Assembly: GCA_965199935.1 (NCBI GenBank)
Contig: CBDATD010000002.1
Coordinates: 128,050-192,049, forward strand
Direction of reading: 5' to 3'
Source of the DNA: Bdellovibrionales bacterium
Lineage (GTDB): Bacteria > Bdellovibrionota > Bdellovibrionia > Bdellovibrionales > UBA1609
DNA: 64,000 nt
This document shows, in pieces, positions 4,380 through 62,783 of this stretch; position 1 is the first letter of the stretch, and each line of letters opens with the position of its first letter. The notes under the pieces were generated by a model. It was not told the DNA's origin and did no database searches. It was given only the letters and a program-made list of their open reading frames with translations. The translations under genes were made by a program, and so were the position numbers.

Positions 4380-4930
4380 TGCCTATCCATGTTCCTGGTG
4401 TTAGAAACAAAAAGAATAGAATTTCTGCCGGCAAAAGGAATGTTGTGGCAGTGCTTCAGCTGACGGCTATGGTGGATATGTTTACTGTGTTAGTGGTGTT
4501 TTTGCTTCAAAACTATGCTTCTACAAATCAGATTCTGCCCATTTCGGATCGGGTGGCGTTGCCAAAAGCGACAAGCACGGCTCAGCTGGTTCCTTCTTTG
4601 GTGGTGACTCTCTCCAAAGAGTCATTGAGTTTTAACGGCAGAGACTTGGTTTCTTTTAATGAAATCAGGGCGAATGAGGAGTGGATGATTGAACCTCTCA
4701 AAGAAGAAGTGGCTGAGTCAGTGGCTCAGTTAAAAGAGGAAAAGAAAAAAGATTTTGTTGTGACTCGAAAAGAGGGCGGGGTTAAAATTTTCCCGTATGA
4801 AAAAATGACTTTGCAGGCGGATGAAAGTATCGATATGCTGTCTATAAAAAAGGTGATGTTTACATTGACCGAAGCTGGGATTAAAGAAATTAATTTTGCC
4901 GTCATTCAGATCAAAAAGTACCCCTCTTGA
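4379..4930 (+). CDS. ExbD/TolR-family protein (second copy)
   Basis: Its start overlaps the upstream stop (ATG at 4379). The motif LQLTAMVDMFTVLVVFLL contains the Asp-in-TM. 183 aa. Confidence 0.7.
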   Translation: MPIHVPGVRNKKNRISAGKRNVVAVLQLTAMVDMFTVLVVFLLQNYASTNQILPISDRVALPKATSTAQLVPSLVVTLSKESLSFNGRDLVSFNEIRANEEWMIEPLKEEVAESVAQLKEEKKKDFVVTRKEGGVKIFPYEKMTLQADESIDMLSIKKVMFTLTEAGIKEINFAVIQIKKYPS

Positions 4931-5312
4931 TTTTTTCAAAGCCGAACTCGTTTACAGCTCTGTCCCCCCAGCCTTTCTATGGAGGCAGGAGTCGGTCATT
5001 GGAAAGGCTGTGTGAACAAAACTGTAAAACTCAGACATGCGTTTTGCCGCAGAGCAAACTTTGTCTGCTCTGTTTCAAAGCCGAACTCGTTTACAGCTCT
5101 GTCCCCCCAGCCTTTCTACGAAAACAGGAGTCGGTCATTGGAAAGGCTGTGTGAACAAAACTGTAAAACTCAGACATGCGTTTTGCCGCAGAGCAAACTT
5201 TGTCTGCTCTGTTTCAAAGCCGAACTCGTTTACAGCTCTGTCCCCCCAGCCTTTCTACGAAAACAGGAGTCGGTCATTGGAAAGGCTGTGTGAACAAAAC
5301 TGTAAACTGTGG
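4931..5312. repeat. three tandem copies (period ~138-140 bp) of a mosaic intergenic repeat
   Basis: The module GTTTCAAAGCCGAACTCGTTTACAGCTCTGTCCCCCCAGCCTTTCTA starts at ~4933, 5071 and 5211. The module CTCAGACATGCGTTTTGCCGCAGAGCAAACTTTGTCTGCTCTG, an imperfect hairpin, is at ~5030 and 5169. The sequence between modules is also conserved between copies. Confidence 0.9.
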
Positions 5313-5382
5313 ATACGCTGTCCCCTTTAGAATATAGAAAAAGGTTGATATGTATCAAGCTCTATTATAATTCATACGAACT

Positions 5383-6756
5383 ATGAGTATGAAGTTCAGC
5401 CATCAATTAGCTCAAAAACTGAATCTCAATCCTCAGATGATTCAGTCTATCGGACTGATGAATTTGTCTGTTATGGAGCTGGAGCAGGCCATTCGCAAAG
5501 AATTGGAGGAAAATCCGGTCTTAGAAGAAAAAGGCGACACTTTAGAAGATGTTTCTTCACTGGAGGAAACTGAGAAGGAGCGTTTGGAATGGACGGAGTA
5601 CACAGCCACCAATATCAACATTCCTAAAAACACAGAGGATGAAAAATACTACGAACGCCATACCCCTGTAGAAGAAAGCTTGAGAGATCATTTGCTGTGG
5701 CAGGTGAATTTTTCCGGGTTCAGCGATTCAGATAGAAAAATATTATACGCGTTGATAGATGCTGTCAATGAAGATGGGTACTTAACAGAGAGCCTTCAAA
5801 GTATTGCGCACGGGCATCATTTGAATGAAACAGAAGTGCGGACTTTATTGAAAAAACTTCAAGAATTTGACCCTCCCGGAGTCGGAGCGGGCAGTTTGAC
5901 AGAATGCCTTCTCATTCAAGCAAAACGCATTGATGAAGATACGCACGATTTGGTTCATCTGTTGAAAAACCATTTGAAAGATCTTCAAACCAAACAATAT
6001 GAAAAAATTGCCTCTGCAATGGATATTCGAGTGGAAGAGGTGCAGGATATTGCACACATTATATCTTCTTTAGACCCTTATCCAGGTCAAAGATTTAACT
6101 CTCATCGAACAGAATATGTTGTGCCGGATATTTATATTGTGAAAAAAGAAGAGGGCGTTTATGAAGCCCGGCTCAATGAGGATTCTATCCCGCAAATTAG
6201 AATTGCTTCTCACTATGTTCGTGTCTTGGATCAGCTGGGCAAAAATCAGGATGAAGAGACAAAACGCTATATCACGGATAAAATGAAAAGAGCCTTGTCT
6301 TTCATTAAGGCCCTCAATCATAGAAAATCTTCTATTTTAAGAGTGACTCAGCTGATTGCAGAAGAACAGGCGGAATTTTTAGAAAAAGGAGAAATGTTTT
6401 TACACCCTCTTCTGCTCAGAGAGATTTCTGAAAGGCTCAACCTGCACATTTCAACAGTCAGCCGGGTGACAGCTAACAAATATGCACATACCCCCCAAGG
6501 TCTTTTGGAATTAAAGTATTTCTTTGGAATCAGTTATTTGAATAAAAAAGGCGAGAGAAAGGGTGCTCCTGCTGTGAAATGGATGATCAAAGAAATCATT
6601 GAATCTGAGAAAATCCCCCTTTCGGATGCTAAAATTTCTCAAAAACTTTTGGACAGGGACGGCATTCACCTCAGCAGAAGACAGGTGGCTCGATTTAGAG
6701 AGGAACTGGGTTATCTCAACACCCTCGAAAGAGAAAGGTATAAACAGAAAGGCTAA
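5383..6756 (+). CDS. rpoN: RNA polymerase sigma-54 factor
   Basis: 457 aa. The N-terminal Q/L-rich region I is MKFSHQLAQKLNLNPQMIQSI. The C-terminal HTH (LHISTVSRVTANKY) and an RpoN-box-like segment (HLSRRQVARFREELG) are present. Confidence 0.95.
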   Translation: MSMKFSHQLAQKLNLNPQMIQSIGLMNLSVMELEQAIRKELEENPVLEEKGDTLEDVSSLEETEKERLEWTEYTATNINIPKNTEDEKYYERHTPVEESLRDHLLWQVNFSGFSDSDRKILYALIDAVNEDGYLTESLQSIAHGHHLNETEVRTLLKKLQEFDPPGVGAGSLTECLLIQAKRIDEDTHDLVHLLKNHLKDLQTKQYEKIASAMDIRVEEVQDIAHIISSLDPYPGQRFNSHRTEYVVPDIYIVKKEEGVYEARLNEDSIPQIRIASHYVRVLDQLGKNQDEETKRYITDKMKRALSFIKALNHRKSSILRVTQLIAEEQAEFLEKGEMFLHPLLLREISERLNLHISTVSRVTANKYAHTPQGLLELKYFFGISYLNKKGERKGAPAVKWMIKEIIESEKIPLSDAKISQKLLDRDGIHLSRRQVARFREELGYLNTLERERYKQKG

Positions 6757-7872
6757 ATGAAAGACTTTATATTTACGAGCGAGTCTGTTTCTGAAGGGCA
6801 TCCAGATAAAATGGCGGATCAAATAAGTGATGCTATTTTAGATGCTTTTTTGGCACAAGACCCTGACAGCCGGGTGGCCTGTGAAACTTTAGTGGCTCCG
6901 GGGCTGGTGGCTGTGGCAGGAGAGGTGAACACTCAATGTTATGTGGATATTACAGGGGCCGTGAAGGACGTTCTTTCTTCTATAGGCTATAATCACGCTA
7001 AAAAAGGGATGGATTATAAATCCTGCTCTGTTTTAACAAGTATCAACCATCAGAGTCCAGACATTGCTCAAGCCGTCGGTTTTGGAAAGGACCAGGGGGC
7101 GGGGGATCAAGGCATCATGTTTGGTTATGCGGTGGATGAAACTGAAGAGTTTATGCCTTTGAGTATTTCTTTATCTCATCAACTGGTGAAAAAATTATCT
7201 GTGCTTCGTAAATCTTCAGGTAATGATTTTTTATGGCCGGACAGCAAAAGCCAGGTGAGCGTCCAATATAAAAACGGCCGGGTGGATTCTGTCAGCAGTG
7301 TGGTGGTATCTACTCAGCACTCGCCGGATATTTCCCTTGAAAAACTTCGTGAGTTCATTGTAGAGGAGTTGATAAAAAAAACGATTCCAAAAAAATGGCT
7401 GAGGAGCACTCAATACTTTGTGAATCCAGGAGGCCGTTTTACTGTAGGAGGCCCCCAAGCGGACACAGGGCTGACGGGGCGTAAAATTATTGTGGATGCG
7501 TACGGGGGACACGGCTCCCACGGCGGCGGGTGTTTCTCAGGAAAGGATCCGTCAAAAGTAGATCGCTCCGGAGCGTATATGGCCCGTTGTATCGCTAAGA
7601 GTTTGACAGCGAACCGGTTGTTAAAAAAGTGTTTGGTTCAAATTGCCTACGCTATCGGGAGGAAAGAGCCTGTGAGTCTTTATGTGGAGGATTATGGAAC
7701 TTCCAAATGGGATCAAAAACAGTTGTGTGATATTGTTTTAAAGAATTGGGATTTAAGCCCTGAGGCTGTCATTCGGGAGTTGGATCTGTTAAAGCCCCGG
7801 TACAGACAGACAGCTGTGTACGGCCACTTCGGCAGGAGTGAATTCACTTGGGAGAAAATCAAATCCTTATGA
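6757..7872 (+). CDS. metK: S-adenosylmethionine synthetase
   Basis: 371 aa with the hallmark motifs FTSESVSEGHPDKMADQISDAILD, GAGDQGIMFGYA and GGGCFSGKDPSKVDRSGAY. Confidence 0.97.
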   Translation: MKDFIFTSESVSEGHPDKMADQISDAILDAFLAQDPDSRVACETLVAPGLVAVAGEVNTQCYVDITGAVKDVLSSIGYNHAKKGMDYKSCSVLTSINHQSPDIAQAVGFGKDQGAGDQGIMFGYAVDETEEFMPLSISLSHQLVKKLSVLRKSSGNDFLWPDSKSQVSVQYKNGRVDSVSSVVVSTQHSPDISLEKLREFIVEELIKKTIPKKWLRSTQYFVNPGGRFTVGGPQADTGLTGRKIIVDAYGGHGSHGGGCFSGKDPSKVDRSGAYMARCIAKSLTANRLLKKCLVQIAYAIGRKEPVSLYVEDYGTSKWDQKQLCDIVLKNWDLSPEAVIRELDLLKPRYRQTAVYGHFGRSEFTWEKIKSL

Positions 7873-7961
7873 CCTCTCTTTTATCTGCAGTTCAGCTTTT
7901 AGCGGGTGATGTTTCTGTGGAAGCTGTAGAGAGAGTCCTGTCAACAGAGAGGCGGCAATAG

Positions 7962-9476
7962 CTATGAAGGAAGGTTTTTGAGTTCTTTGAAAAATCCATA
8001 AACAATAATACATACAAAAATTGTGAATGGAAAAGCTGAAATAATCACCAATAGCTCTAAAGATTGAATACCTCCTAAAAAGAGAAGCGCCAGGGCGATG
8101 AAACCTTCAAGGAACGCCCAGTAGATTTTGTGACTGGTTTTATTTTTGGTGCCGGCCAGATTATGCACGATATAGGAGGCAGAATCAGAAGAGGTGATGA
8201 AAAATAAAGCCACTGCCAAAATGCTGATATAAGACATTACCTGCGCCAAAGGAAAATGCTCTAAAAATTTAAAAATCAAAATGGAATATTCTGTTTTTAC
8301 AAAAGGCTCCAAGTTCATATCTCCAGTGATATGCTGTTCAATGGCTGTTCCTCCGAAGGCGGTAAACCATAAAAAAGAAATACAGCTTGGAATGACTAGT
8401 GTTCCGATGACAAACTCCCGTACGGTCCGGCCTTCGGAAACACGCGCAATAAAGGTGCCGACAAAAGGAGACCAGGCAATCCACCAGGCCCAGTAAAGAA
8501 TAGTCCATTGAGATCTCCACTCTGAAGACCCTAAAGAGTTGATGCGTGTCATATCGGAAATCAAATTTTGTAAATAAGCGCCTGTATATTCCACAAAAGA
8601 GTTAAGCAGAAAAACAGTTGGACCCGCAATGAACATAAAAACTAATAAAACAGCGCAAAGTAAAATATTTATTTCACTCAACCTTCGAATGCCTCGGTTC
8701 AGTCCTGAGATGACAGATAAAACAGCGCACAAAGTGATGAAGACAATAATAAGAGCCTGAGTTGTTCCAGAAAAAGATATGTCAAACAAATGCCTTAATC
8801 CTGAGTTGATCTGCATGGTTCCCCTTGCCAGCGTTGTGGAGACGCCGAATAAAATGGCAATAATGGAGAAAATATCAATACACCAGGCCAGAGGGCTGTT
8901 GATTTTGTCTTTAAAGAAGGGAGAAAGCATACAGGAAATTCTAAAAGGATGCCCCTTGTAGAGGCAAAAATAAGAAAACACCAATCCCATAATAGTATAA
9001 ACCACCCATCCGGAAAAACCCCAATGCAGGAATGTTAATTGGAATGAAAGATCCATGGATTGAGGAGTGGAGCCTTCTCCCGACGGAGGAAACAAATAAT
9101 GATAAAGAGGTTCATACACTCCGGAAAACAAAAGCCCCGTACCCATGCCGGCGCTGAAAAGCATGGCAATCCATGTAAATGTGCTGTACTTAGGTTTAGA
9201 TAGAGAACCTAGACGTTTTCCGCCGTAAGAGCTGAATATTAAATAAATGCAAAAACAAAAGAGAACAAAAATGACCGTGACGTAAAACCATGAAATATTC
9301 AGAACAAAAGTACTTTTAACCCAGGAAAGCAGGCTGAATGTTTTTTGAGGAAAAATCTTAAAGCCGGCCAAAATCAGAAAAACAAGAAGGGAGGATAAGA
9401 CAGCGGTGATGTTGAATTTTTTCAAAGTCTTTTCTCCGGAAGAGTTAAGTGTATCAAGGGGCATCTTCCGGATCAC
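7962..9476 (-). CDS. BCCT-family (betaine/carnitine/choline) transporter
   Basis: 504 aa and polytopic. It carries the BCCT signature-like stretch [32 protein letters not shown]. Confidence 0.9.
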
Positions 9477-9778
9477 CAGCTGGCTTTGATGACTCCAGGC
9501 AGATATCCTTTGTGGGCCATTTCACGAACAGCGATGCGGGAGAGGCCGAATTGTCTAAGGTGGCCCCGCGGTCTGCCTGTCATTGCACAGCGCCGGACGA
9601 CACGATTTAAACAAGTGGATTTAGGAAGTTTTTGAAGCTTTAGAAAGGCTGTAGTCCTTTCCTCTTCGGAGAGTTTCATGTTGATAGATGTTTTTCTTAA
9701 AGATCTCCGAATGGATAAAAATTTTTTAGCTTTTTCAAAACGTTTTTCATTCTTAACGATGGAACTTTTTTTTGCCAT
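9473..9778 (-). CDS. rpsN: 30S ribosomal protein S14 (long, 101-aa form)
   Basis: [13 protein letters not shown]...[40 protein letters not shown] is a canonical S14 C-terminus. Its stop overlaps the BCCT start by 4 nt. Confidence 0.93.
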
Positions 9779-9892
9779 ATTTACGCTCCGGTCTTCAAAG
9801 TTTGAGATTTTCGTCCTGCTGTTTCTGCGAACATAAGATCAAATACTGAAAAATACAATACAAAAAATCACACACAGAGATTATTTTGTGTT

Positions 9893-33951: not shown

Positions 33952-35100
33952 ATGAAGCGATGGATTGAACCTTATATTTTAAAAGATTTGTCTAAAAAAA
34001 TGGTTTTTTTAGGAGGCCCCAGGCAGGCGGGAAAGACCACTTTGGCTCAGGCTCTCCTTAAGAATTTTCCCTATAAAAAATCTAAAAAGGGCTTGTATTT
34101 GAATTGGGATTTTGACGAAGACAGATCCTCTATTTTGAAAAAAAAGTGGGATGAAGATCATCAAGTTATTGTGTTTGATGAGCTTCATAAATATAGATTT
34201 TGGAAAAACTGGATTAAAGGAGTGTATGACAAATATAAAGGGATGCATAAATTTTTAATCACTGGGAGTGCAAGGCTTGATATGTATAAAAAGGGGGGAG
34301 ATTCATTGTTGGGCCGTTACCATTATTGGAGGCTTCATCCCCTCACAATAGATGAAAGACCTTCAAAGATGAGCCGTAAAGAGGCTTTTAAAAGATTGAT
34401 GACAGTAGGAGGCTTTCCTGAGCCTTTTCTAGGAGGAAATGAACAGGAGGCCCGGCGGTGGAGAAGGGAGCGTTTTGACAGGATTTTAAAAGATGATATT
34501 AGAGATTTAGAATTTATAAAGAAAATTCAAGATTTAAGTTTGTTTGTGGATGTATTACGCCGCAAAGTAAGCCAGCTTGTTATTTTGTCCAACATTGCAA
34601 AACAAATACAAATTTCTCCGAGAACAGCTCAGCTGTGGCTTTCTGCTTTAGGGCGTATGTATGTTTGTTTTTGTATTTATCCCTATACGAGGCATTTAGC
34701 TCGGGCCGTGAGAAAACCTCCAAAAGTTTATTTCTTCGATAACGGAGATGTCATTTCTGAAGACAATGAGGGTTCTCGTTTTGAGAATCTTGTGGCGGCT
34801 CATCTTATAAAAAAAATGCATTTTTGGGAGGATGCAAAAGGCTTCAATATGGATTTAAGGTATATTAGAGATAAAGAATCTAGAGAAGTGGATTTTATTA
34901 TAATTAAGGAGGGTCGAGCGTGGGCTTTGGTGGAGGTAAAACTTTCGGATGATAAAATTTCAAAGTCTCTTCTTTACTATTCTGAAAAGCTCAAACCTAA
35001 ATATGCCATACAGATCACTGCAGATTTAAAACAAGAGTATAAGCAAAAAGGCTGTCGTGTTTTGCGTCTCGAAACAGCTTTGAAAGTTTTATTTGAATAG
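33952..35100 (+). CDS. AAA+ ATPase of the AAA_14/DUF4143 (COG1373-like) type
   Basis: 382 aa. Features are Walker A GGPRQAGKTTL and Walker B VIVFDELHKY, then GSARLDMYKKGGDSLLGRY and a C-terminal segment with REVDFII...ALVEVK (nuclease-fold-like). It is a paralog of 42142..43272. Confidence 0.8.
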   Translation: MKRWIEPYILKDLSKKMVFLGGPRQAGKTTLAQALLKNFPYKKSKKGLYLNWDFDEDRSSILKKKWDEDHQVIVFDELHKYRFWKNWIKGVYDKYKGMHKFLITGSARLDMYKKGGDSLLGRYHYWRLHPLTIDERPSKMSRKEAFKRLMTVGGFPEPFLGGNEQEARRWRRERFDRILKDDIRDLEFIKKIQDLSLFVDVLRRKVSQLVILSNIAKQIQISPRTAQLWLSALGRMYVCFCIYPYTRHLARAVRKPPKVYFFDNGDVISEDNEGSRFENLVAAHLIKKMHFWEDAKGFNMDLRYIRDKESREVDFIIIKEGRAWALVEVKLSDDKISKSLLYYSEKLKPKYAIQITADLKQEYKQKGCRVLRLETALKVLFE

Positions 35101-35362: not shown

Positions 35363-36521
35363 ATGTACAAAAATCGAATTATTGATATTTCTGAAGATAA
35401 GAATATCCTCTTTTTTTGGTGTTCGAGGAAGCGGTAAAACAAAGCTTTTAAAACGTCTTTTTCCTTCAGCTCTGTACATTGATCTTTTAGATGAGACTCT
35501 TTATCAAGACTACCTCTCTAATATTGGGAAGTTTTATGAAACAGTCAGTGGTTTTAAAAATGACGGCTTGGTTATTGTGGATGAAGTTCAAAAAATGCCT
35601 AACCTGTTAAATGAGGTTCATCGGCTTATTGAATCTTCTCAGCGGCGATTTATTTTGACCGGATCTAGCGCAAGAAAAATTAAAAGCAGGGGAGTAAACC
35701 TTTTAGGAGGTCGAGCGGGTATAAAGCATCTTCACCCTTTCACTCCAGAAGAGCTGGGAGAGGATTTTAATTTAGATCAAGCTTTGCGTTATGGTTTAAT
35801 TCCCATTGTATGGTCTTCTCATGACAGGGATGACAAACTAAAAGATTATGCTGAAACCTATCTTAAAGAGGAGATAAAAGCAGAAGCTTTAGTAAGGCAT
35901 TTGCCTAGTTTTGTGCGTTTTTTACAAACGGCTGGTTTGTATCATGGGCAGGTTGTCAATATGAGTGCAGTTGCAAGAGAGTCTCAAATTTCAAGAGACT
36001 ATGTGCGTGAGTTTTTCTCTATTTTAGAAGATACAATGCTGGGGTTTTTTCTTCCCGCTTATTATCCAAAGCTTCGTTTGAGAGAGCAAAAGAGTTACAA
36101 ATTTTATTTGATTGATCCGGGTCTAGCGCGTGCTTTAAAGAAAAACTTTGGCCCTGTATCGACTGAGGAGAAAGGATTTCTTTTTGAAGGGCTTATGGCT
36201 CAGCTGTTGAGGACTTATAAAGACTACCGTGGTCTTTGTGAAGATATTTATTATTGGTCTTCTTTAGGGTCAAAACAGACAGAAGTAGATTTTCTTTTAA
36301 AAAGGGGGGAGGAATTAATAGCCATTGAAGCTAAAGCCAAAAATGACGTTTCTTCTCAGGATTACAAGGGGCTTAAAGCTATTGGTGAATTACCGGGTGT
36401 TAAAAGGAGAATTGTAGTTTACTTAGGAAAGACTATAAGAAAAACCCAAGAAGGCATTGAAATTTGGCCCTTTGATTTCTTTTGCCAAAACCTAAAAGAA
36501 AATTTTAAATCTAGTATTTAA
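35363..36521 (+). pseudogene. AAA+ ATPase (DUF4143-type, second subfamily), +1 shift in a T7 run near the 5' end
   Basis: The ATG at 35363 gives MYKNRIIDISEDKNILFF, after which the frame is lost in T7 (35411-35417). Removing one T joins it to GVRGSGKTKLL (Walker A), the frame of track ORF 35382..36521. Downstream are VIVDEVQKMP (Walker B) and TEVDFLL...IAIEAK. This could be a sequencing error rather than a true pseudogene. Confidence 0.7.
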
Positions 36522-37614: not shown

Positions 37615-38394
37615 TTGTGTTTGTTCTTCTTAAAAAAGAGGAAGCTTGTGAGAAGATTAAAAGATCTGGGAGAAGAAAAACTTATTGATCAATTCAAGAA
37701 CAAATTATCATTAACTTCTTTTGTAGAAAAGAAGAAAAATTTATCTGATTATTTAGATAAAATTCCGTTTGTAGAAAAACGAAAAGGAGGAGAAGGAGAA
37801 CAATCTTATGTGGAAATTTGTACTTTTCTCAAACTAGGAATTCATTATAAAGCTTCACATTTGAAATGGACTGGTGGCCAACTGGAAGGAAATGAGTTTG
37901 ATGGAATATTATATTTTGATCAAGGTGAACAAAAAATTGAAATATCTGCATTGATTAACCCGGAAGAAATGAAGGATTATAGAAAAAAGTCCGGACATCA
38001 AGAGATTCCAAGAAGTATTGTAAAATCAATGAAAGAAATGAATGTTTCTGAAGATTTCCTTAGAAAATATTGGAAGTCCTATAAAAATCTAGAGGAGTCT
38101 TATTTGGGGTGTCCCACAACCATAGTAGAAGATTTTATATATGAGAGGTTGGTTTCTATTTTCAAAAAGAAAAATAACAAAAAATACAAAGGGTTTTGGC
38201 TTGTTATTTCTTATGAACCTAATTTCTCTTTAGAATATTTTAGCGATGACTGTATTAAAAAATATATTTTCAAAAAAATAAAAAGTGACAATAACTTCAA
38301 ACATCTAAAAGATATTTTTAAAAAAATAATCTTCCTGCCATATCACGAAGTAAAGGGGCATAAAATTTTTGAATTGGATAAACCTTATTTTTGA
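37615..38394 (+). CDS. hypothetical protein (has a decayed paralog at 57404..57910)
   Basis: ~250 aa with no recognisable domain. The likely true start is the GTG at 37648, which has a GAGGA RBS and is where homology with the second copy begins. Confidence 0.5.
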   Translation: MCLFFLKKRKLVRRLKDLGEEKLIDQFKNKLSLTSFVEKKKNLSDYLDKIPFVEKRKGGEGEQSYVEICTFLKLGIHYKASHLKWTGGQLEGNEFDGILYFDQGEQKIEISALINPEEMKDYRKKSGHQEIPRSIVKSMKEMNVSEDFLRKYWKSYKNLEESYLGCPTTIVEDFIYERLVSIFKKKNNKKYKGFWLVISYEPNFSLEYFSDDCIKKYIFKKIKSDNNFKHLKDIFKKIIFLPYHEVKGHKIFELDKPYF

Positions 38395-39616: not shown

Positions 39617-39700
39617 TTACTTAGAATCATATATCAGTTGCTGCATATTGCAGTCAGAGCTGTCAAATTTTTCATCGGTTTCATGGTAAGGGCAGTCATC
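39617..39700 (-). pseudogene. remnant R1 of the 3' end of the 61401..62783 gene family (most diverged copy)
   Basis: The minus-strand translation is DDCPYHETDEKFDSSDCNMQQLIYDSK*. Compare GGDCPYYEADEILGNTNCNDFQDLDD in the intact gene. There is no start codon or upstream coding sequence. Confidence 0.55.
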
Positions 39701-42141: not shown

Positions 42142-43272
42142 TTATATTTTTAAGACTTCTTTGCAGAAAGTGATGAAGGGCAGGGAGCGGCCTTTGTTCT
42201 TTTCATCTCCAAAATCTTTTTTCATAAGATGCACTTGAAAGCACTTTGGGATAAGCAGTCTTTTTTGAAAATACCCCAGATGAGGAGATAAAGCTTTCTC
42301 ACCCGCTTTGCATTCCACTGCAAATAACGGGCGTTTATTTTTTAGGACTATAAAATCCACTTCTCTTTTGTCTGTGTCCCTCAAATATCTTAATTCCATT
42401 TTATCTCCGCGGGAGTCACAGCGGTAATGGCAGTATTTTAATAAATGACAAGCGACAAGATTTTCAAAGCGGTATCCCTTTGATTCTATTTGAGACCAGT
42501 CCCAAAAATAAAGTTTTTGCTCCTTTTTGACTGCCCTGATCTTTGAACGTCCAAAGGGGGGGATTAAAAACACAACATAAAGAGCTTCAAGCAGTTTTAA
42601 CCACCGAGCAATAGTTTGGTGGCTGACTTGTAAATCCTCTCTTATTGAGTTGATAGACAGAGGTGATCCTGATTTTTCAGGCAGAGACTCTAACAAGAGG
42701 TGAATCAATGAAACTTCTTTTACTTTTTCTAAATCTCTTAAATCCTCATTAATTACTTGGTGATTTCTATGGTTTTGCCATTTCTTCCAATGGCTGAGCG
42801 ATTGGCTGAATAGAGGTTCAGGAAATCCTCCAAACTTCATCAGTGTTTTTAAATCGCTGATGGAAGGGTTTTTGTTCAATTCTAAGAGAGAAAAAGGATG
42901 AAGCCGATAATGAAAATATCGACCCATCAAAGAGTCTCCCCCTTTTGAAAAGTAATCCAAACGCCCTGATCCTGTAACTACAAAGAAATGATTTGAGTGA
43001 TGTGCATCATAAAGTCCTTTCATGAAAGACCTCCATCTGGCGTATTTATGAATTTCATCAAAAATAATTATTTTATGTTTTAACGGGATTTCATTAATTA
43101 ATATTTTTTTTCTATGATCTGGAATATCCCAATTTAAGTAAGATGGATTTCTTGCTGCAGACGGCTTGATCAAACTAAGGCTGAGAGTGGTTTTTCCGAC
43201 TTGTCGGGGTCCGCTGATAAACACCATCTTCTTTTTCATATCTTTTTTAATATGGCTGGACAGGTATCGCAT
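42142..43272 (-). CDS. AAA+ ATPase of the AAA_14/DUF4143 type (paralog of 33952..35100)
   Basis: 376 aa. Features are Walker A SGPRQVGKTTL, Walker B IIIFDEIHKY, GSGRLDYFSKGGDSLMGRY, and the C-terminal REVDFIV...FAVECK. Confidence 0.8.
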   Translation of the reverse strand: MRYLSSHIKKDMKKKMVFISGPRQVGKTTLSLSLIKPSAARNPSYLNWDIPDHRKKILINEIPLKHKIIIFDEIHKYARWRSFMKGLYDAHHSNHFFVVTGSGRLDYFSKGGDSLMGRYFHYRLHPFSLLELNKNPSISDLKTLMKFGGFPEPLFSQSLSHWKKWQNHRNHQVINEDLRDLEKVKEVSLIHLLLESLPEKSGSPLSINSIREDLQVSHQTIARWLKLLEALYVVFLIPPFGRSKIRAVKKEQKLYFWDWSQIESKGYRFENLVACHLLKYCHYRCDSRGDKMELRYLRDTDKREVDFIVLKNKRPLFAVECKAGEKALSPHLGYFQKRLLIPKCFQVHLMKKDFGDEKNKGRSLPFITFCKEVLKI

Positions 43273-43679: not shown

Positions 43680-45125
43680 ATGACATTAGGTCAGTTGTTT
43701 CAAGAATTTCAGAATAATCCAATAGCTTTGATTATATTTTGTGTTTGTTCTTTATTTATATTCTATTATGCTTATTTGGAGGGGAGAAGCTTAAAAGCAG
43801 AAAGTTTTAAGGATTATAAATCTATTATTATCAGCATTGGTATATGCGGTACTTTCATAGGTATATTTATTAGTTTATTCTCCTTTGATCCTCAAAATAT
43901 TGAAAAAAGCGTACCTGAATTACTAGGTGGACTGAAATTAGCTTTTTCAACGTCTATTGTAGGTATGCTTTTCTCTATAATCTTATCTCATAGAGAGAAC
44001 TCTTTATCAAAATCTGAAAATCAATCCAATTCTTCAGAAAAAGATATTTTGAAATCTATTCTTGAGACAAATGTTGAAACCAACGGTGTTTTAACAAAAT
44101 TATCACAGAGCATAGAAAAATCTAATTTAAGGATGGTTAATCAATTAGTTTCCACTGAATCCTCTATTTCAAATTGTTTAAAACCCATTTTAGCTGAACA
44201 AAAAATGGCGAATAGTCTTTTCCTTGAGATTAAGAATAAAGTGGAGACCATAAATGACAATATGCTACAATCATCCGAGAATATAGATCAACACCTCAAC
44301 AAGGTTCAAAGGATGGTTAATCAATTAGTTTCCACTGAATCCTCTATTTCAAATTGTTTAAAACCCATTTTAGCTGAACAAAAAATGGCGAATAGTCTTT
44401 TCCTTGAGATTAAGAATAAAGTGGAGACCATAAATGACAATATGCTACAATCATCCGAGAATATAGATCAACACCTCAACAAGGTTCATACGTCATTAAA
44501 ACAGGCGTTAGAAGAATTATCTAAAGGAGCTTCTGAAGCTGTTGTTACTGCATTAAAACAGGTAATTACTGATTTTAATGACAACTTAACAGAGCAATTT
44601 GGAGACAATTTTAAACAGCTTAATGAAGCGGTTTATAAGATGATTAAATGGCAAGAGAATTATAAGGTGGCGATCACACAAGTGGAAGAGAATTTACAAA
44701 ATATACAAACTCAGATTGAGCAAAATTCCTCTTGGGTTGAAAGGTTTGCGGAAGATTATAAAAAAATCTCAAAAGTACATCAAGATTTAAGGGAAATTAT
44801 AGAAACAAATCAACATCAAATAGACGAATTAGAAAATGGACTAAGTAACCTTCACGAGGCTGGTCAAGGTGCTGATTTGTTAGTAAAATCGATGGAGAAC
44901 TTTTCATCAAAGATTAGGTCTTCCATAGAAGAGCAATCAACAGCATTAAATAATCAATCAGAGTCCCTTAGAACTCAATCAGATAATTTAAGAAAGGAAT
45001 TGGAAAGCTCTTTAGGAAATCTGAACACAGCCCTTGTGAGTTTGACCAATAAATTTAGAGAAGAGTATAAAGGCCTTCTTGAACAGCATAAGGAACTGCT
45101 TCTGAACTTCAAGAGATCAGCATAG
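43680..45125 (+). CDS. MotA/ExbB-like membrane protein with long coiled-coil tail (ZorA-like)
   Basis: The N-terminal TM helices include the MotA/ExbB-type pattern SIGICGTFIGIFISLF...LLGGLKLAFSTSIVGMLFSIIL. The remaining ~360 aa are heptad-rich, Q/E/N/L coiled-coil-like. It contains a perfect 60-codon tandem duplication. Confidence 0.7.
   Translation: MTLGQLFQEFQNNPIALIIFCVCSLFIFYYAYLEGRSLKAESFKDYKSIIISIGICGTFIGIFISLFSFDPQNIEKSVPELLGGLKLAFSTSIVGMLFSIILSHRENSLSKSENQSNSSEKDILKSILETNVETNGVLTKLSQSIEKSNLRMVNQLVSTESSISNCLKPILAEQKMANSLFLEIKNKVETINDNMLQSSENIDQHLNKVQRMVNQLVSTESSISNCLKPILAEQKMANSLFLEIKNKVETINDNMLQSSENIDQHLNKVHTSLKQALEELSKGASEAVVTALKQVITDFNDNLTEQFGDNFKQLNEAVYKMIKWQENYKVAITQVEENLQNIQTQIEQNSSWVERFAEDYKKISKVHQDLREIIETNQHQIDELENGLSNLHEAGQGADLLVKSMENFSSKIRSSIEEQSTALNNQSESLRTQSDNLRKELESSLGNLNTALVSLTNKFREEYKGLLEQHKELLLNFKRSA
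44131..44490 (+). repeat. perfect 2 x 180-bp in-frame tandem duplication inside the ZorA-like tail
   Basis: 44131-44310 and 44311-44490 are identical base for base except at the last 2-3 nt, the junction. Each copy encodes RMVNQLVSTESSISNCLKPILAEQKMANSLFLEIKNKVETINDNMLQSSENIDQHLNKV. Confidence 0.97.
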
Positions 45126-45134
45126 AGTGTTCAG

Positions 45135-45926
45135 ATGAAGGTAGATTTGACACAATTTGAAGAGCTTTTGGAAGCAGTAAAGAGTTTTGGTATTAGTGAT
45201 TTTTCAAAAATAAAAATTCAATTTGAAAGAGGTGAAGGGTTAGATGTAAATTTAGATGAGATTTTTCCTTCTTCAAGTGAAGAGCTTCTAACTATTTTAC
45301 CGGATGGGTCAGTTAGAAAATCTATCATCTATATTGTGGATATTTCTACATATTATGATGAGACACATAGTTATCCTAAGTTTCATATATATAATTGTAA
45401 GACGATAAAGTGGATGAGAGCTGGTGGGAGAGGACATAGATACAAAGCTTCTAGCAGAGTAGATGGGAAATTCATGCTGATCAAAAATGACAGAAAGTGG
45501 GAAGAAGAATTAAAAATATGTCTTAACTGTCTGAAACATTACAATGATCAATTTGTAAGTATTAAAACAAGAGAAAATTTTTCAATTAAAGAATATATCA
45601 AAAATCCAATAAAGAGTTCTGGATTTTTTGAAAGCTTTGATTTTTGTACTCTTCCAAATGTGTACGCTGAAAATTGGAAATCTATATCAGATTACGTAAA
45701 GAAGAGGTCACATTATAAATGTTCTAAATGCTGTAGGGATTTTTCAAACAAATCTTATAGAGAGTTTTTACACACTCACCACAAGGATGGAGATAAGACT
45801 AATAATACGTTTGGAAATCTAGTTTCTTTATGTATTGAATGCCACTCTCAAGAATATAATCATGGGCATATGAAAAATAGCTTTCAATACAAAAAATATT
45901 TAAAAACTAAAAAGAAGGTAGCATGA
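45135..45926 (+). CDS. HNH endonuclease-domain protein (ZorE-like position/function)
   Basis: The C-terminal HNH/His-Me finger is CSKCCRDF...LHTHHKDGDKTNNTFGNLVSLCIECHSQEYNH. The N-terminal ~190 aa are an unknown domain with PKFHIYNCKTIKWM...CLNCL. It starts 10 nt after the ZorA-like stop. Confidence 0.75.
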   Translation: MKVDLTQFEELLEAVKSFGISDFSKIKIQFERGEGLDVNLDEIFPSSSEELLTILPDGSVRKSIIYIVDISTYYDETHSYPKFHIYNCKTIKWMRAGGRGHRYKASSRVDGKFMLIKNDRKWEEELKICLNCLKHYNDQFVSIKTRENFSIKEYIKNPIKSSGFFESFDFCTLPNVYAENWKSISDYVKKRSHYKCSKCCRDFSNKSYREFLHTHHKDGDKTNNTFGNLVSLCIECHSQEYNHGHMKNSFQYKKYLKTKKKVA

Positions 45927-46675
45927 AGTCTTCTAAAGAATGGATAAGTATTTCAGATATGATGACTGGACTAATGATGGTTTTTCTATTTATTGCTGTC
46001 CTGTATATAGATAAAATTGAAGATAGCATTCGATGTATGGAGCATCCAGAAGAATTTCAGAAAGAAGTAAAAAATTTGATGGAAAGATATGATAACTATA
46101 ATGAACAAATTTATGTTCAGCTTAAAAATGAATTCAATAAAGAGTTAGAAATATGGGATGCAAAATTAGATAGAGAAAATCTCACAATGAGTTTTTCTCG
46201 TAAAATGATCTTTTTGGCTGGGGATACTCGTATCAAACAGAATTTTAAAAAAGTTTTAGATAATTTTTGCCCTAGATATTTTAAGATCTTGTACAAATCT
46301 AAGGAAGATATAAAGGAGATAAGAATAGAAGGTCATACATCCAGAGAGTGGGATGAAGTTTCCAATCGAAAAATAGCTTATTTTAATAATATGGAGCTAT
46401 CACAAGATAGAACGAGATCAGTATTAGAATATTGTATAGCAGAGCGTTTGAGCATTGATGATGAAATTCAAAATTGGATATTGAAAAAAGTTACGGCAAA
46501 TGGTTTGTCGTCTAGTCAACTTAAATGTGATCATACAGATCCTGATGAGTTATGTAAAGCTCAAAATAGAAGAGTCGAATTTCGGGTGCAAACGAATGAA
46601 ACTGCTGTGTTGAAACAAATTAAAGATAAGCTCAATAATTTATTAGAGCAATTAAAAAAGTGTAAAAAAACATAA
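45923..46675 (+). CDS. MotB/OmpA-like stator-anchor protein (ZorB-like)
   Basis: An ATGA overlap joins it to the HNH gene. The N-terminus is WISISDMMTGLMMVFLFIAVL, a MotB-type plug/TM with the conserved Asp. The C-terminal OmpA-like motifs are IRIEGHTS...NMELSQDRTRSV...NRRVEFRV. Confidence 0.75.
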   Translation: MKSSKEWISISDMMTGLMMVFLFIAVLYIDKIEDSIRCMEHPEEFQKEVKNLMERYDNYNEQIYVQLKNEFNKELEIWDAKLDRENLTMSFSRKMIFLAGDTRIKQNFKKVLDNFCPRYFKILYKSKEDIKEIRIEGHTSREWDEVSNRKIAYFNNMELSQDRTRSVLEYCIAERLSIDDEIQNWILKKVTANGLSSSQLKCDHTDPDELCKAQNRRVEFRVQTNETAVLKQIKDKLNNLLEQLKKCKKT

Positions 46676-46732: not shown

Positions 46733-46850
46733 TCACTGGTTTTCATTTCTGTTGAAGTTGATACAAGGGTATCCACTGCATTGCGGGGCCAAAGGGTGTA
46801 CTTTACCACTGTAATCATCTAAATCTGAAAAGTCATTGCAGTCAGAGCAA
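46733..46850 (-). pseudogene. remnant R2 of the 3' end of the 61401..62783 gene family
   Basis: The minus-strand translation is CSDCNDFSDLDDYSGKVHPLAPQCSGYPCINFNRNENQ*. It begins immediately at the stop codon of gene 46851..48347. Confidence 0.65.
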
Positions 46851-55600: not shown

Positions 55601-55885
55601 TCGCAGTTGATGTAGGAGTGTGAGTGGGGTTCGCCTCCTAATTAACTACCGCCGCCGTCATAGTCTATGTGAGGATAAGGCAAATATAGTCTGAATCTAT
55701 CTCCTAATTGGGATTGAATGATGTCAGAGATAGATAAGAAGTCGTCTAAATCAGTGAAGTCATTACAGTTTGTGCGACTTGATAATCTTTCATCAGCTTC
55801 ATAGTAAGGGCAGTCGCCTCCTTCTTCTCCCTCAAGGTCTGAATCACCGCTTCGTCCGTCTGAATCCTGAAAGTTTAAAAATTCA
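55601..55885 (-). pseudogene. remnant R4 of the 3' end of the 61401..62783 gene family
   Basis: The minus-strand translation is EFLNFQDSDGRSGDSDLEGEEGGDCPYYEADERLSSRTNCNDFTDLDDFLSISDIIQSQLGDRFRLYLPYPHIDYDGGGS* (stop at 55642-55644). It is followed by GCGAACCCCACTCACACTCC and a second tail-let, TACATCAACTGCGAC. There is a stop codon upstream and no start codon. Confidence 0.8.
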
Positions 55886-55984
55886 AACTTTTAGAATGAA
55901 TAGAGATTCTCTAAGAAGAGTAATTAGATGTACATATTATTGGTATATTGAATAGTTGTAAAAGAACTAATAAATGCTTGCATT

Positions 55985-56854: not shown

Positions 56855-57165
56855 ACTACCGCTTCCTCCGGTGAAGTCTTCGTAGTCGAGATACAGGGGT
56901 GTTGAGAGCGGGGTTGCCTAGCTTCCGCTGCCAGAGCCGTCGTAATCGATACAAGGGTATCCACTGCATTGTGGGGCCAAAGGATGTACTTTACCGCTGT
57001 AATCATCTAAATCTTGAAAGTCATTGCAGTTCGTATTTCCTAATATTTCGTCAGCTTCGTAGTAGGGGCAGTCGCCTCCTTCTTCTCCGTCAAGGTCTGG
57101 ATCACCGCTTCGTCCGTCTGAATCTTGAAAGTTCAAAAATTCTTCTTTACTGGTGTGAAACCTAG
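56855..57165 (-). pseudogene. remnants R5a+R5b of the 3' end of the 61401..62783 gene family (best-preserved copy)
   Basis: R5b (56918-57165) on the minus strand reads KEEFLNFQDSDGRSGDPDLDGEEGGDCPYYEADEILGNTNCNDFQDLDDYSGKVHPLAPQCSGYPCIDYDGSGSGS*. About 150 bp of it are near-identical to 61470-61620. After its stop comes GCAACCCCGCTCTCAACACCCC and then a tail-only copy, R5a (56855-56917, ..YLDYEDFTGGSGS), which abuts the ankyrin gene stop. Confidence 0.85.
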
Positions 57166-57403: not shown

Positions 57404-57910
57404 GTGAAAAGAATTAAAAAATTCAAAAGAAGAAAAACTTATTAGTCAATTCAAGAAAAAATTGTCATTAACTTCTTTTAAAGAAAACCAGAAAAACTTG
57501 TCTAATTATTTAGGTACAATGCTACTTTAAGAAAAATGAAAGGGAGGAGAGGGAGAGCAAGCCTATGCAGAAATTTGCACTCTTCTCAAATTAGGAACTC
57601 ACCATAAAACTTCACATCTGAAGTGGGCTGGTGACCAGCGGGATGGAAACGCTTTTGATGGGATACTGTATTTCGATCAAGACGAACAAAAAGTTGAAAT
57701 TTCTGCATCAATTAACCCGGAAGAAATAAAGGATTATAGAAAAAAGGATGGACATCGAGAGATGACAAAAAGTGTTGTACAATCAATGAAAAAACGAATT
57801 TTTCTGAAGATTTTCTTAGAAAGTATTGGACATCTTGCAAAAATCTAGAGAAGTTTCTTTTGAGGTATTCCCCAATTATAGTAGAAGATTTTGTATATAA
57901 ATTGAGGAGA
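57404..57910 (+). pseudogene. decayed paralog of gene 37615..38394
   Basis: Nucleotide similarity is evident from GAAAGCTTGTGAAAAG (compare GGAAGCTTGTGAGAAG at 37640) through ...ATAGTAGAAGATTTTGTATATAA. The frame from the GTG at 57404 stops after 13 codons, there are multiple indels, and the 3' third is missing. Confidence 0.7.
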
Positions 57911-58954: not shown

Positions 58955-59785
58955 GTGGATTCTACACTATTAATTTCAATATTTGCTTTAGGGATGACCG
59001 TGCTTGCTTTTGTAATGGCAGTAGTTACTCTCTGTTTGCAGTGCAGGGGAAATAAAATTGCTAACGATGTAAACAAACAGTCAGAGAAAATTTCAAAACA
59101 TCAAGATCGTATAGAATTTTTCCAAAAAAAGAATCATGTTATAGGTCAGGTTAAAAATTTAGAGCTTTCTGAAGAAAGTTCTATCAAACTTGTAAACGAT
59201 ATAGAGTTTATATTTGAAAATAGATTCAGTCATATAGTGGTTAAAGATACAGAAGGCTCATTTCCTGAACTTTCTATGAGTAGTTGTGGAAGTGCAGATG
59301 AAGCAGACAATTGGATTAATCAATTAAAAGAAAAAATCATTAAAATTCATCTAATAAAAGAAGGAGAAAGATCTTATGCTCTTCCTTCTGTGTCAGAGGA
59401 TTTTGAAAGGAAAGAAGGTTTAGAAATGGGTCAAATAAAAGGCTTAGAAGATGAGCATTATTATTGGAAGAATAGCCAAATCACATACATTCCTGGATTT
59501 TTATTTGTTATAGAGAAAATAGGATATAAAGGTAGGAACAGCGTAGAATCAAAAAATGAGCGTGATGAAAGTATTGAGCTTAAACATCGGTTTTTTAAGA
59601 AAGCTACTTTAGATACAGAGGAGAGATATGTTTTGTATGTATCTAAAGCAGGGAAAGACTTTAGATGGATAATTTATGATTTTCCTAATCATGAAAGTGT
59701 GAGAGTAGAGGTTAAATTTGTTAATCCAAATAGATTAGAAGAACACGCAAATGCCTTAAAAGCATTCCTTGAGTGGGGACACTAG
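58955..59785 (+). CDS. hypothetical N-terminally membrane-anchored protein
   Basis: GTG start with an N-terminal TM (LLISIFALGMTVLAFVMAVVTLCL). 276 aa with no recognisable motif. Its last codons (..EWGH*) lie inside the repeat motif, and its stop shares a CTAG with remnant R6. Confidence 0.45.
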   Translation: MDSTLLISIFALGMTVLAFVMAVVTLCLQCRGNKIANDVNKQSEKISKHQDRIEFFQKKNHVIGQVKNLELSEESSIKLVNDIEFIFENRFSHIVVKDTEGSFPELSMSSCGSADEADNWINQLKEKIIKIHLIKEGERSYALPSVSEDFERKEGLEMGQIKGLEDEHYYWKNSQITYIPGFLFVIEKIGYKGRNSVESKNERDESIELKHRFFKKATLDTEERYVLYVSKAGKDFRWIIYDFPNHESVRVEVKFVNPNRLEEHANALKAFLEWGH

Positions 59786-59870
59786 CTTCCGCCGGCGGAG
59801 CCTTCGTAGTTGAAAGGGGTATCCACTGCATTGTGGGGCTATAAGCTACTGTTCTTTAAAGTCACTGCCT
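59782..59870 (-). repeat. remnant R6 of the 61401..62783 3'-end repeat
   Basis: The minus strand reads ..PHNAVDTPFNYEGSAGGS* (stop at 59782-59784). The segment GGGGTATCCACTGCATTGTGGGGC matches R5b and R2. Sequence downstream of the stop (TGTCCCCACTCA) matches the post-stop motif. Confidence 0.6.
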
Positions 59871-61400: not shown

Positions 61401-62783
61401 CTAGTTACCTCCGCCTCCGCCGCCTGAGTTTTCATAATCAACCTTTGGATACGAATTCAAGGTATTGAAGTCATCTAAATCTTGAAAGTCATTGCAGTTC
61501 GTATTTCCTAATATTTCATCGGCTTCATAATAGGGGCAGTCACCGCCTTCTTCTCCGTCAAGGTCTGGATCACCGCTTCGTCCGTCTGAATCTTTAAAGT
61601 TCAAAAATTCTTCCTTTGTATTCCATTCTCGAATCATTAGATGTGTTCTATGTAGAGCATCAAAGTTTGAATCTAAGCATTCCAAAGTAAAATATGGATA
61701 TCCTATTGGCAGATGTACTTGTGGTGAGTTCTCATCTTTTCGAGATTCATCTGGAAAAAACATTAGTGGGCAATCAGGACAAGAATATGAATTAGTTCTT
61801 TGATTTTCTCCTGGAAAAAATCCTGGTGGGTTGTCTGTAAAAATTAAATCCTCAATACCATCAAAGTAATTGACAGTAGGAGTGCTTTTATTCACAAAAC
61901 GATCTTGAAATATTGGACCCACCATAAAAGTTTCTCGTCTTCCCCGAGTCCAAGAAGAAAACACTTGCGGTATAGGGTATTCTATTTCCAGTTTATAATC
62001 ATTTATGAAAGCGAGGGTGACATTCCTTTGTGCAGGCCAATCAGAGGATCGGACTGGACCTCCAATGCAGTTGCTAAGCTCTCCTCCCCATTCTTTTTCT
62101 GCGGTATCCGATTCGTTTTCTACTGTACAATCATCAACACTCCCAGTAGTACTTTTATATTGAGTAGTTTCGGCCATACCAAAGCAACAATTGCTTAAAC
62201 CTGACTCAGACAGATCATAATCACAACTTTCCTCTTGGTCTTCTTCTTGTAAGATCCATCCTGTACCTGTTGATCTGATCCACGTTTCTTCCTCAAAAGT
62301 TTCTGAATCTTCATTTGTGACTTTACATTCATCTACTGAAAGTGGCCCTATTCCAGAACGTTGATTCCAATGCCAGGGGGCCATGAAGGTAGTGTATTCA
62401 CACATCTCTCTAGGGACGTTGTATTGTATGGGGATTCCCTCTTCTGCCTGCCCCAATACGCCAATATCCGCCTCATTCAAATCTAAAATGCAGTACAAGT
62501 CCTCCACAGACTCCGTGTTTTTGTCTATACCGCAGTCAATGAGGCCGATGGTGTCGTTAGAACTCAGCTCATACAAAGGGACAGCAAGCCCTTGTCCTTC
62601 GTAGTGACCTGTATCGAATTTAATATAAAAACGATCGTCAATATCCTCACTGGTTAGCTCAGAGAAAACATCTATCGTGGGAACGCAGGACAGGCAGAAA
62701 TAAAATATAAAGAAATAGATTCCCGCTTTTATAGATTTTAAAGACACTTCTATATGTTCTCCTGTTATCCGTGAAACGTACAC
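61401..62783 (-). CDS. secreted/lipoprotein-like Cys- and Asp/Glu-rich protein, unknown function (intact source of the R1-R7 repeats)
   Basis: 460 aa. It has an N-terminal hydrophobic segment with a lipobox-like FCLSC and many Cys residues. The acidic C-terminal module is KEEFLNFKDSDGRSGDPDLDGEEGGDCPYYEADEILGNTNCNDFQDLDDFNTLNSYPKVDYENSGGGGGGN. The start codon choice is uncertain. Confidence 0.6.
   Translation of the reverse strand: MYVSRITGEHIEVSLKSIKAGIYFFIFYFCLSCVPTIDVFSELTSEDIDDRFYIKFDTGHYEGQGLAVPLYELSSNDTIGLIDCGIDKNTESVEDLYCILDLNEADIGVLGQAEEGIPIQYNVPREMCEYTTFMAPWHWNQRSGIGPLSVDECKVTNEDSETFEEETWIRSTGTGWILQEEDQEESCDYDLSESGLSNCCFGMAETTQYKSTTGSVDDCTVENESDTAEKEWGGELSNCIGGPVRSSDWPAQRNVTLAFINDYKLEIEYPIPQVFSSWTRGRRETFMVGPIFQDRFVNKSTPTVNYFDGIEDLIFTDNPPGFFPGENQRTNSYSCPDCPLMFFPDESRKDENSPQVHLPIGYPYFTLECLDSNFDALHRTHLMIREWNTKEEFLNFKDSDGRSGDPDLDGEEGGDCPYYEADEILGNTNCNDFQDLDDFNTLNSYPKVDYENSGGGGGGN

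Follow-up and report, generated by a model that had tools for sequence, protein, structure and literature searches.

Genome analysis of a 64,000-nucleotide stretch of contig CBDATD010000002.1 (Bdellovibrionales bacterium, assembly GCA_965199935.1), referred to below as the window, showed three genes at positions 43680-46675 that most probably represent a complete type II Zorya anti-phage system with the gene order zorA-zorE-zorB (A-E-B), located in a horizontally acquired defence island of low guanine plus cytosine (GC) content (probability about 0.88). Membership of the three proteins in type II families according to sequence and profile comparisons, the retention of functional residues, the coupling of the genes in one operon and a gene order that marks a clade are established here. 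The type of the system itself was already known; the clade-specific order, a history of ZorB that differs from those of ZorA and ZorE and a private duplication in the ZorA tail are new, and these three features leave the identity of the system unchanged.

For each of the three proteins, type I and type III profiles and non-Zorya families score far below its own type II profile. The best PADLOC profile for ZorA is ZorA2 PDLC00638 (E-value 1.1e-62, with ZorA2 profiles ranging from 1e-62 to 2e-36), the matches to ZorA1 (5e-12) and ZorA3 (1e-5) being far weaker. ZorE is best matched by ZorE2 PDLC00643 (1.7e-46, profile positions 33-280 of 282; ZorE2 profiles range from 2e-46 to 4e-16), and ZorB by ZorB2 PDLC00641 (1.6e-73). 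Significant matches to Zor profiles, proposed as a check in a preliminary description of this DNA, were accordingly obtained for all three proteins (1e-46 to 1e-73). The solved structure closest to both ZorA and ZorB is the type II ZorAB complex of Sulfuricurvum kujiense, PDB 8VVI, with values of 2.2e-30 for ZorA against 8vvi_F, the type II ZorA of S. kujiense, and 2.8e-39 for ZorB against 8vvi_A, where WISLSDMMT is aligned with WISISDMMT. The order of the window genes, A-E-B, is not the canonical zorA-zorB-zorE. The Zorya II rule of PADLOC is based on the presence or absence of genes and does not require an order, which is taken here as descriptive; the original definition of Zorya is not known to require a gene order either.

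The gene zorA (43680-45125, forward strand) encodes a type II ZorA of 481 aa, in which three transmembrane (TM) helices precede a helical cytoplasmic tail. It ends with the stop codon TAG and is followed, after a spacer of 9 nt (45126-45134, forward strand), by the ATG of zorE (45135-45926, forward strand), encoding a protein of 263 aa that combines a DUF8245 region at the N terminus with an HNH nuclease domain. The stop codon of zorE and the start codon of zorB overlap in the sequence ATGA (45923-45926, forward strand), with AAGAAGG just 5' of the overlap, consistent with translational coupling. Gene zorB (45923-46675, forward strand) encodes a protein of 250 aa with an N-terminal TM helix containing D12 and a C-terminal OmpA-like peptidoglycan-binding domain. 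The three co-directional open reading frames (ORFs), linked by the 9-nt gap and the ATGA overlap, form one operon; their coordinates and strand, the gap and the overlap all agree with the preliminary description. No terminator-like site was detected inside the zorA-zorE-zorB operon in the promoter/terminator scan. Promoter-like sites showed no excess over shuffled sequence in the promoter scan, and the promoter was not located.

Motor proteins and nuclease of the operon

Hydropathy analysis of ZorA showed hydrophobic segments at residues 10-35, 46-71 and 84-103; the tail behind them comprises about 370 residues. The AlphaFold2 (AF2) monomer model is helical throughout (predicted local distance difference test score, pLDDT, 62), with tail helices at residues 120-301 and 307-480. 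The three segments and the all-helical tail support the earlier assignment of ZorA to MotA/ExbB-type membrane proteins with a long tail. Residues T58 and S92, which align with T147 and S184 of E. coli ZorA (EcZorA) in HMMER alignments, are invariant in 14 homologues; type I defence depends on the Thr147/Ser184 filter of ZorA and on Asp26 of ZorB (Hu et al. 2024, PMC11946911). The characterization of ZorA as relatively short did not hold, as the protein has 481 aa versus 378 aa for the solved S. kujiense ZorA, and type II ZorA lengths in this sample range from 338 to 980 aa.

ZorB contains one hydrophobic segment (residues 7-33) and, within the TM helix, the residue D12 in the sequence WISISDMMTG, which aligns with the Asp of 8vvi_A and corresponds to D26 of EcZorB. 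The OmpA domain passes the Pfam cut-off (32.2 versus 27.2 bits), being the sole Pfam match of the three proteins above its cut-off, and the motifs NxxLSxxRxxxV and NRRVEF are present in the sequence. A plug, a TM Asp and an OmpA domain had initially been ascribed to this protein; the latter two are found, while the plug must be withdrawn, since ZorB proteins lack the MotB-like plug (Hu et al. 2024, PMC11946911).

No hydrophobic segment was found in ZorE, the homologues of which bear PF26739/DUF8245. The pattern CxxC...HH...N...CxxCH, already recognized in the preliminary description, is present, and residues C196, C199, H215, H216, N224, N228, C233, C236, H237 and H243 show no variation among 18 homologues; the Pfam HNH match is sub-threshold. 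Residues essential for ZorE were mapped in E. coli in a 2026 preprint (PMC13192584). The ZorE encoded by the E. coli plasmid NZ_CP127005.1, the residues of which agree with the numbering of the preprint, was aligned with ZorE of the window. Residues H90, Y189, H226 and K231 of E. coli ZorE (EcZorE) correspond to H84, Y177, H216 and K221 of the window protein, and N234, N238, L239, H247 and H253 to N224, N228, L229, H237 and H243; all nine are kept. The structural model of ZorE is of good confidence in the HNH half only, the N-terminal half being of low confidence, and the fold search showed weak similarity to DotN, Cap5, T4 endonuclease VII and the HNH domain of Cas9 over 70-90 residues. No sequence relative of ZorE was found in PDB.

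The same three protein families are encoded by the type II Zorya of E. coli (zorA2-zorB2-zorE), which is present, for example, in strain ATCC 8739, tested in PMC11890865, and on the IncY plasmid NZ_CP127005.1. Identity to the window proteins is 40% for ZorB, 28% for ZorE and 22-33% for ZorA. The Asp of ZorB, the Thr/Ser filter of ZorA and the nine ZorE residues are shared, and all three genes lie on one strand in one operon, as in the window. The differences concern the order, A-B-E in NZ_CP127005.1 versus A-E-B in the window, and the size of two proteins: E. coli ZorE has 367 aa, with a nuclease-like C-terminal extension of roughly 100 residues that is absent from the 263-aa ZorE of the window, and E. 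coli ZorA has 550 aa versus 481 aa in the window (421 aa without the duplication).

The ZorAB complex of S. kujiense (PDB 8VVI, PMC11890865), the template for the 5:2 motor architecture, contains a ZorA of 378 aa, and its 8vvi fragments are closest to members of the A-B-E branches, not to the A-E-B clade. Type I Zorya (zorABCD of E. coli NCTC9026; PDB 8QYD; PMC11946911) has a homologous ZorAB motor, with matches of about 1e-5 to 1e-7 for the ZorA head and 2.8e-49 for the ZorB1 profile. The ion pathway of Asp and Thr/Ser and the long helical tail, the integrity of which is essential in type I, are common to both systems. However, the type I effectors are ZorC and ZorD, with no HNH protein, type I ZorA (729 aa) is extended at the N terminus by about 85 residues, and the defence by type I is direct (non-abortive), while type II reportedly confers immunity at the level of the population. 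The 5:2 ion-driven motors MotAB, ExbBD and TolQR are related by distant homology of the TM core and by the Asp of the B subunit, and MotB also contains an OmpA-like peptidoglycan-binding domain. They have neither the long cytoplasmic tail nor a nuclease partner, and a motility or Tol/Ton context is absent here.

The assembly, activation and anti-phage effect of the system are predicted by homology with the characterized systems of E. coli and S. kujiense (PMC11890865, PMC11946911). ZorA and ZorB would form a 5:2 ion-driven rotary motor in the inner membrane, with the OmpA-like domain of ZorB anchoring it to peptidoglycan and the TM residue D12 carrying the ion, while the five ZorA tails would bundle into a long cytoplasmic helical rod. 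Perturbation of the envelope by a phage would lead the active motor to recruit ZorE, a soluble HNH protein, to the membrane; there, ZorE would nick DNA, halting the spread of the phage.

Gene order among type II Zorya loci

The order zorABE is considered canonical for type II Zorya, and other arrangements were excluded from the phylogeny and tail-length analyses of Hu et al. (PMC11946911); the canonical order zorA-zorB-zorE, as given in the preliminary description, is that of this study and of the E. coli plasmid NZ_CP127005.1. A literature search for 'zorAEB' returned nothing. Loci with ZorE were collected by a scan of species-representative genomes, by searches of 1,760 genomes from five groups with PDLC00643 and from wider flanking regions, and the neighbouring genes were classed with hidden Markov models of ZorA, ZorB and ZorE built from the collected loci. 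The order A-E-B was found in 14 genomic loci, and A-B-E in about 30. The former include the window, 10 loci from the order holding the 'Bdellovibrionales bacterium' metagenome-assembled genomes (MAGs), and one each from Campylobacterales, Candidatus Albibeggiatoa and a further gammaproteobacterium.

In both the ZorE and the ZorA tree (IQ-TREE), a branch with 100/99 support separates the 14 A-E-B loci from the remaining ones. A ZorA phylogeny had been suggested as a way of finding out whether the order defines a clade, and it does. The nearest relative, L111, has the A-E-B order and a ZorE 79% identical to that of the window, the second-closest ZorE being P0003 (77%). For an independent test, the ZorE alignment was also run against metagenome contigs: the 14 loci in which a close ZorE (33-43% identity) is present at full length all had the order (A-)E-B, and more distant loci, where scorable, showed (A-)B-E. 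The A-E-B order is evidently a heritable property of the clade, and not an accident of the window genome or a mobile HNH insertion, because it is shared by the 14-locus clade, L111 and the 14 metagenome loci. It probably represents a derived, clade-specific rearrangement without an evident change of parts, since zorA and zorB are adjacent in types I and III (PMC11946911) and the clade is nested among A-B-E lineages (in unrooted trees). The strong type II profile matches, the A-E-B clade and the canonical status of zorABE (PMC11946911) bear out the initial proposal of a Zorya II relative with a non-canonical gene order.

An origin of the gene trio outside type II Zorya is very improbable. The preliminary description had considered a fusion of stator pair and nuclease that arose independently, a convergent association non-homologous to type II Zorya, in favour of which are the non-canonical order and the low identity (22-40%) to E. 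coli ZorA2, ZorB2 and ZorE. However, each protein individually matches its type II profile far better than others, and the A-E-B clade falls among A-B-E lineages in the trees, not apart from them. No relative has these genes in a motility or Tol/Exb cluster, and the three ordinary MotA/ExbB/TolQ paralogues of the genome are located elsewhere, away from the Zorya operon; the operon itself has defence genes as neighbours instead of a motility, Tol-Pal or TonB cluster, and its A subunit carries the tail of about 370 residues.

It is hardly credible, too, that the HNH gene encodes a homing endonuclease that moves separately, happens to split a MotAB-like or ZorAB pair and is no functional partner of it. 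HNH genes are often mobile, PADLOC gives weak matches to 'HEase' profiles (E 1.7e-4), and the position between zorA and zorB is unusual. Nevertheless, the match to ZorE2 is full-length, including the non-HNH N-terminal DUF8245 part; the gene occupies the same position in every genomic A-E-B locus (14 of 14), in L111 and in 14 metagenome loci; ZorE co-diverges with ZorA, its tree giving the same clade; zorE is translationally coupled to zorB; and no full-length relative was found on viral contigs. Matches to ZorE in the viral contigs of IMG/VR were fragments confined to the HNH domain, and only distant ZorE (below 33% identity) was found in the plasmid collection; therefore, there is no sign of the A-E-B clade on known plasmids or phages.

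The history of ZorB differs from that of the other two proteins, as the A-E-B loci fall into three groups in the ZorB tree, unlike in the ZorA and ZorE trees. The approximately unbiased (AU) test rejects the monophyly of A-E-B loci for ZorB with p = 0.003, the very divergent ZorB of L076 being left out. The conflict is concentrated in the peptidoglycan-binding domain: when the alignment is split, this domain rejects monophyly (AU p = 0.02), and the TM/linker part does not (AU p = 0.23). The tests were run after inspection of the tree and are indicative only. The conflict fits either an exchange or a host-specific re-adaptation of the wall anchor, and the separate history of the peptidoglycan-binding domain hints at an exchange of the anchor in a host-specific manner. 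ZorB proteins of the 'Bdellovibrionales' A-E-B loci group with ZorB of an A-B-E system, L085, from the same order-level sample.

These data add Bdellovibrionales-like bacteria with small genomes, a lineage that has received little study, to the carriers of type II Zorya and reveal a well-supported clade of about 30 sampled loci in which zorA and zorB flank the nuclease gene. The A-E-B clade is missing from the statistics of tail length and phylogeny of at least one major comparison (PMC11946911), which was filtered for zorABE. A more far-reaching interpretation, at present doubtful, is that the zorA-zorE-zorB clade represents a functionally distinct Zorya II subtype, in which the nuclease is coupled to ZorB, the wall anchor is exchanged or re-adapted independently for the cell wall of each host, and the ZorA tail is tuned rapidly by in-frame duplications. 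If this were true, tail length and wall anchor would be two separately evolvable 'knobs' of the sensor, and the duplication in the window a just-born example.

Other arrangements were observed among the collected loci. A third type II arrangement is that of L071-L074 (Campylobacterales genomes G477, G462, G429 and G446), with zorB encoded by the other strand at a distance of 0.6-3 kb upstream of zorA-zorE. The ZorA, ZorB and ZorE trees each place the four loci in a separate clade, and their ZorA proteins are long (528-716 aa), with tandem repeats of 16-20 aa. Locus L010 (positions 4822-9780; Bdellovibrionales MAG CBDBBW010000007.1) shows a local amplification, zorA-zorE-zorE'-zorB-(zorE fragment)-zorB', with 80% identity between the ZorE copies and 85% between the ZorB copies. 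The Campylobacterales genome G402 (L008/L017 and L107) contains two type II Zorya systems, one with the order A-E-B on contig 67 and one with the order A-B-E and a ZorA of 980 aa on contig 27 (L107, 1737-4679). Finally, an ORF of 557 aa matching the ZorE profile was found in L090 (5445-7115; genome G1499 of the Bacteroidota sample), the flanking 5 kb or so in both directions containing neither ZorA nor ZorB; the ORF may encode an orphan or fused ZorE-like nuclease.

Duplication in the ZorA tail

The gene zorA contains a perfect in-frame tandem repeat of 180 bp at positions 44129-44488 (Tandem Repeats Finder: period 180, 2.0 copies, 100% matches), which was recovered by a second repeat search as well and corresponds to the duplicated segment reported previously. 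Copy 1 (44129-44308, forward strand) encodes residues 151-210 of ZorA, identical to residues 211-270 encoded by copy 2 (44309-44488, forward strand), and it is copy 2 that aligns with the single copy of L111, the ZorA of which has 421 aa. The 180-bp unit has no other occurrence in the genome. The duplication is located in the proximal, length-variable part of the tail and is probably a very recent event private to this lineage. With 60 additional residues, at a rise of 1.5 Å each, the helical tail would be longer by about 9 nm.

Tandem repeats are also present in the tails of other type II ZorA, namely, units of 23 aa in L007 and 25 aa in L009, and a long stretch of 18-residue periodicity in the 980-aa ZorA of L107; the tails of L073 and L074 are repeat-bearing as well. 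Internal repeats were scored by an ungapped off-diagonal BLOSUM62 scan with shuffles; self-BLAST gave the identity match only, even for the known ZorA duplication. Since other type II tails carry such repeats, growth by tandem duplication looks like a normal evolutionary route for the type II ZorA tail. The in-frame lengthening by 60 residues and the one-copy relative L111 represent a natural allele pair for the effect of tail length on Zorya activity.

An artefact of assembly, with a true zorA encoding 421 aa as in the nearest relative, is suggested by the 100% identity of the copies and by the single copy in L111, but is unlikely: assemblers usually collapse perfect tandem copies and seldom create them, the unit has no further copy in the genome, the duplication keeps the reading frame exactly and falls in the length-variable proximal region of the tail, and other type II ZorA tails bear repeats of other unit lengths (L007, L009, L107, L073/L074). 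The system could also be present but disabled, with signalling from the motor to ZorE broken by the longer tail. All tested truncations of the type I tail abolish defence, and the recruitment of effectors needs an intact tail (PMC11946911); in addition, 60 is not a multiple of 7, and the insertion would introduce a 4-residue stutter in the heptad phase. Against such a loss of function, which also seems improbable, are the intact state of all three ORFs, the wide natural variation of type II tails (ZorA of 338-980 aa), which moreover carry repeats, and the nature of the cited type I changes, which are truncations and not lengthening.

A complete type II Zorya system remains the preferred reading of the three genes, and the following observations weigh against it. 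Both characterized systems, those of E. coli and S. kujiense, come from A-B-E branches, and the window proteins share only 22-40% identity with those of E. coli. ZorA is under the Pfam MotA_ExbB cut-off (18.4 versus 22.9 bits); sub-threshold Pfam scores are usual for these divergent families. The AF2 models of ZorE and ZorA are of modest confidence (pLDDT about 62), and no significant match (E <= 0.001) was found in the fold search with the ZorE model against PDB. Residues E99 and H235 of EcZorE are not conserved in ZorE of the window, being replaced by W93 and T225. The duplication in ZorA comes from the assembled sequence, and, with type I Zorya defence lost upon every tail truncation (PMC11946911), the duplicated ZorA could be impaired.

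Defence island and host

GC content is 42.8% in the first 33 kb of the window, 32% in the stretch of 36-61 kb and 31% in the operon, with 39.8% for the whole genome. The flanks exceed the operon in GC content in every A-E-B locus, a pattern expected of defence genes acquired by transfer. The neighbourhood of the operon contains genes of three AAA_14/DUF4143 (PDC-S01-like) ATPases, a pair of DUF4209 (PDC-S39) and DUF4145 (PD-T7-4) genes, a TIR protein gene, an Hsp70 module and a Shedu-like gene; as evidence of protection against phages, such a neighbourhood is circumstantial. The three paralogous AAA_14/DUF4143 ATPase genes are located at 33952-35100, 35382-36521 and 42142-43272; the one adjoining zorA, PDC-S01-like according to PADLOC, is transcribed divergently, and 407 bp separate it from zorA.

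Remnants of the 3' end of a secreted-protein gene (61401-62783) were found at 39666-39698, 46751-46842, 55601-55890, 56924-57151 and 59770-59813 by repeat search, blastn and tblastn. The remnant at 46751-46842 (no strand assigned), a copy of the 3'-end region of this gene located just 3' of zorB, closes the Zorya-bearing cassette and is 90% identical to 56939-57030; its part 46815-46842 was recovered by blastn/tblastn. The separation of island cassettes by such remnants fits a serial insertion at the 3' end of the gene 61401-62783. The scans of the window for transfer RNA genes and Rfam families were both empty, and the island is therefore not linked to a transfer RNA gene within the window. 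Most of the island is bracketed by a direct repeat of about 490 bp (about 80% identity; 37656-38142 and 57413-57898, 19.7 kb apart), which overlaps an unannotated ORF of 259 aa at 37615-38394.

The host, a Bdellovibrionales-like bacterium, has a small genome of 1.44 Mb, and its 16S ribosomal RNA shares 86.7% identity with the one from a 'Bdellovibrionales bacterium' MAG. In the sample of the host phylum, ZorE2 is uncommon, with 2 of 401 genomes containing it. In L111, a TIR_2 gene (125-1015; 296 aa) is located near the Zorya operon, upstream of it, while the TIR gene of the window is located downstream.

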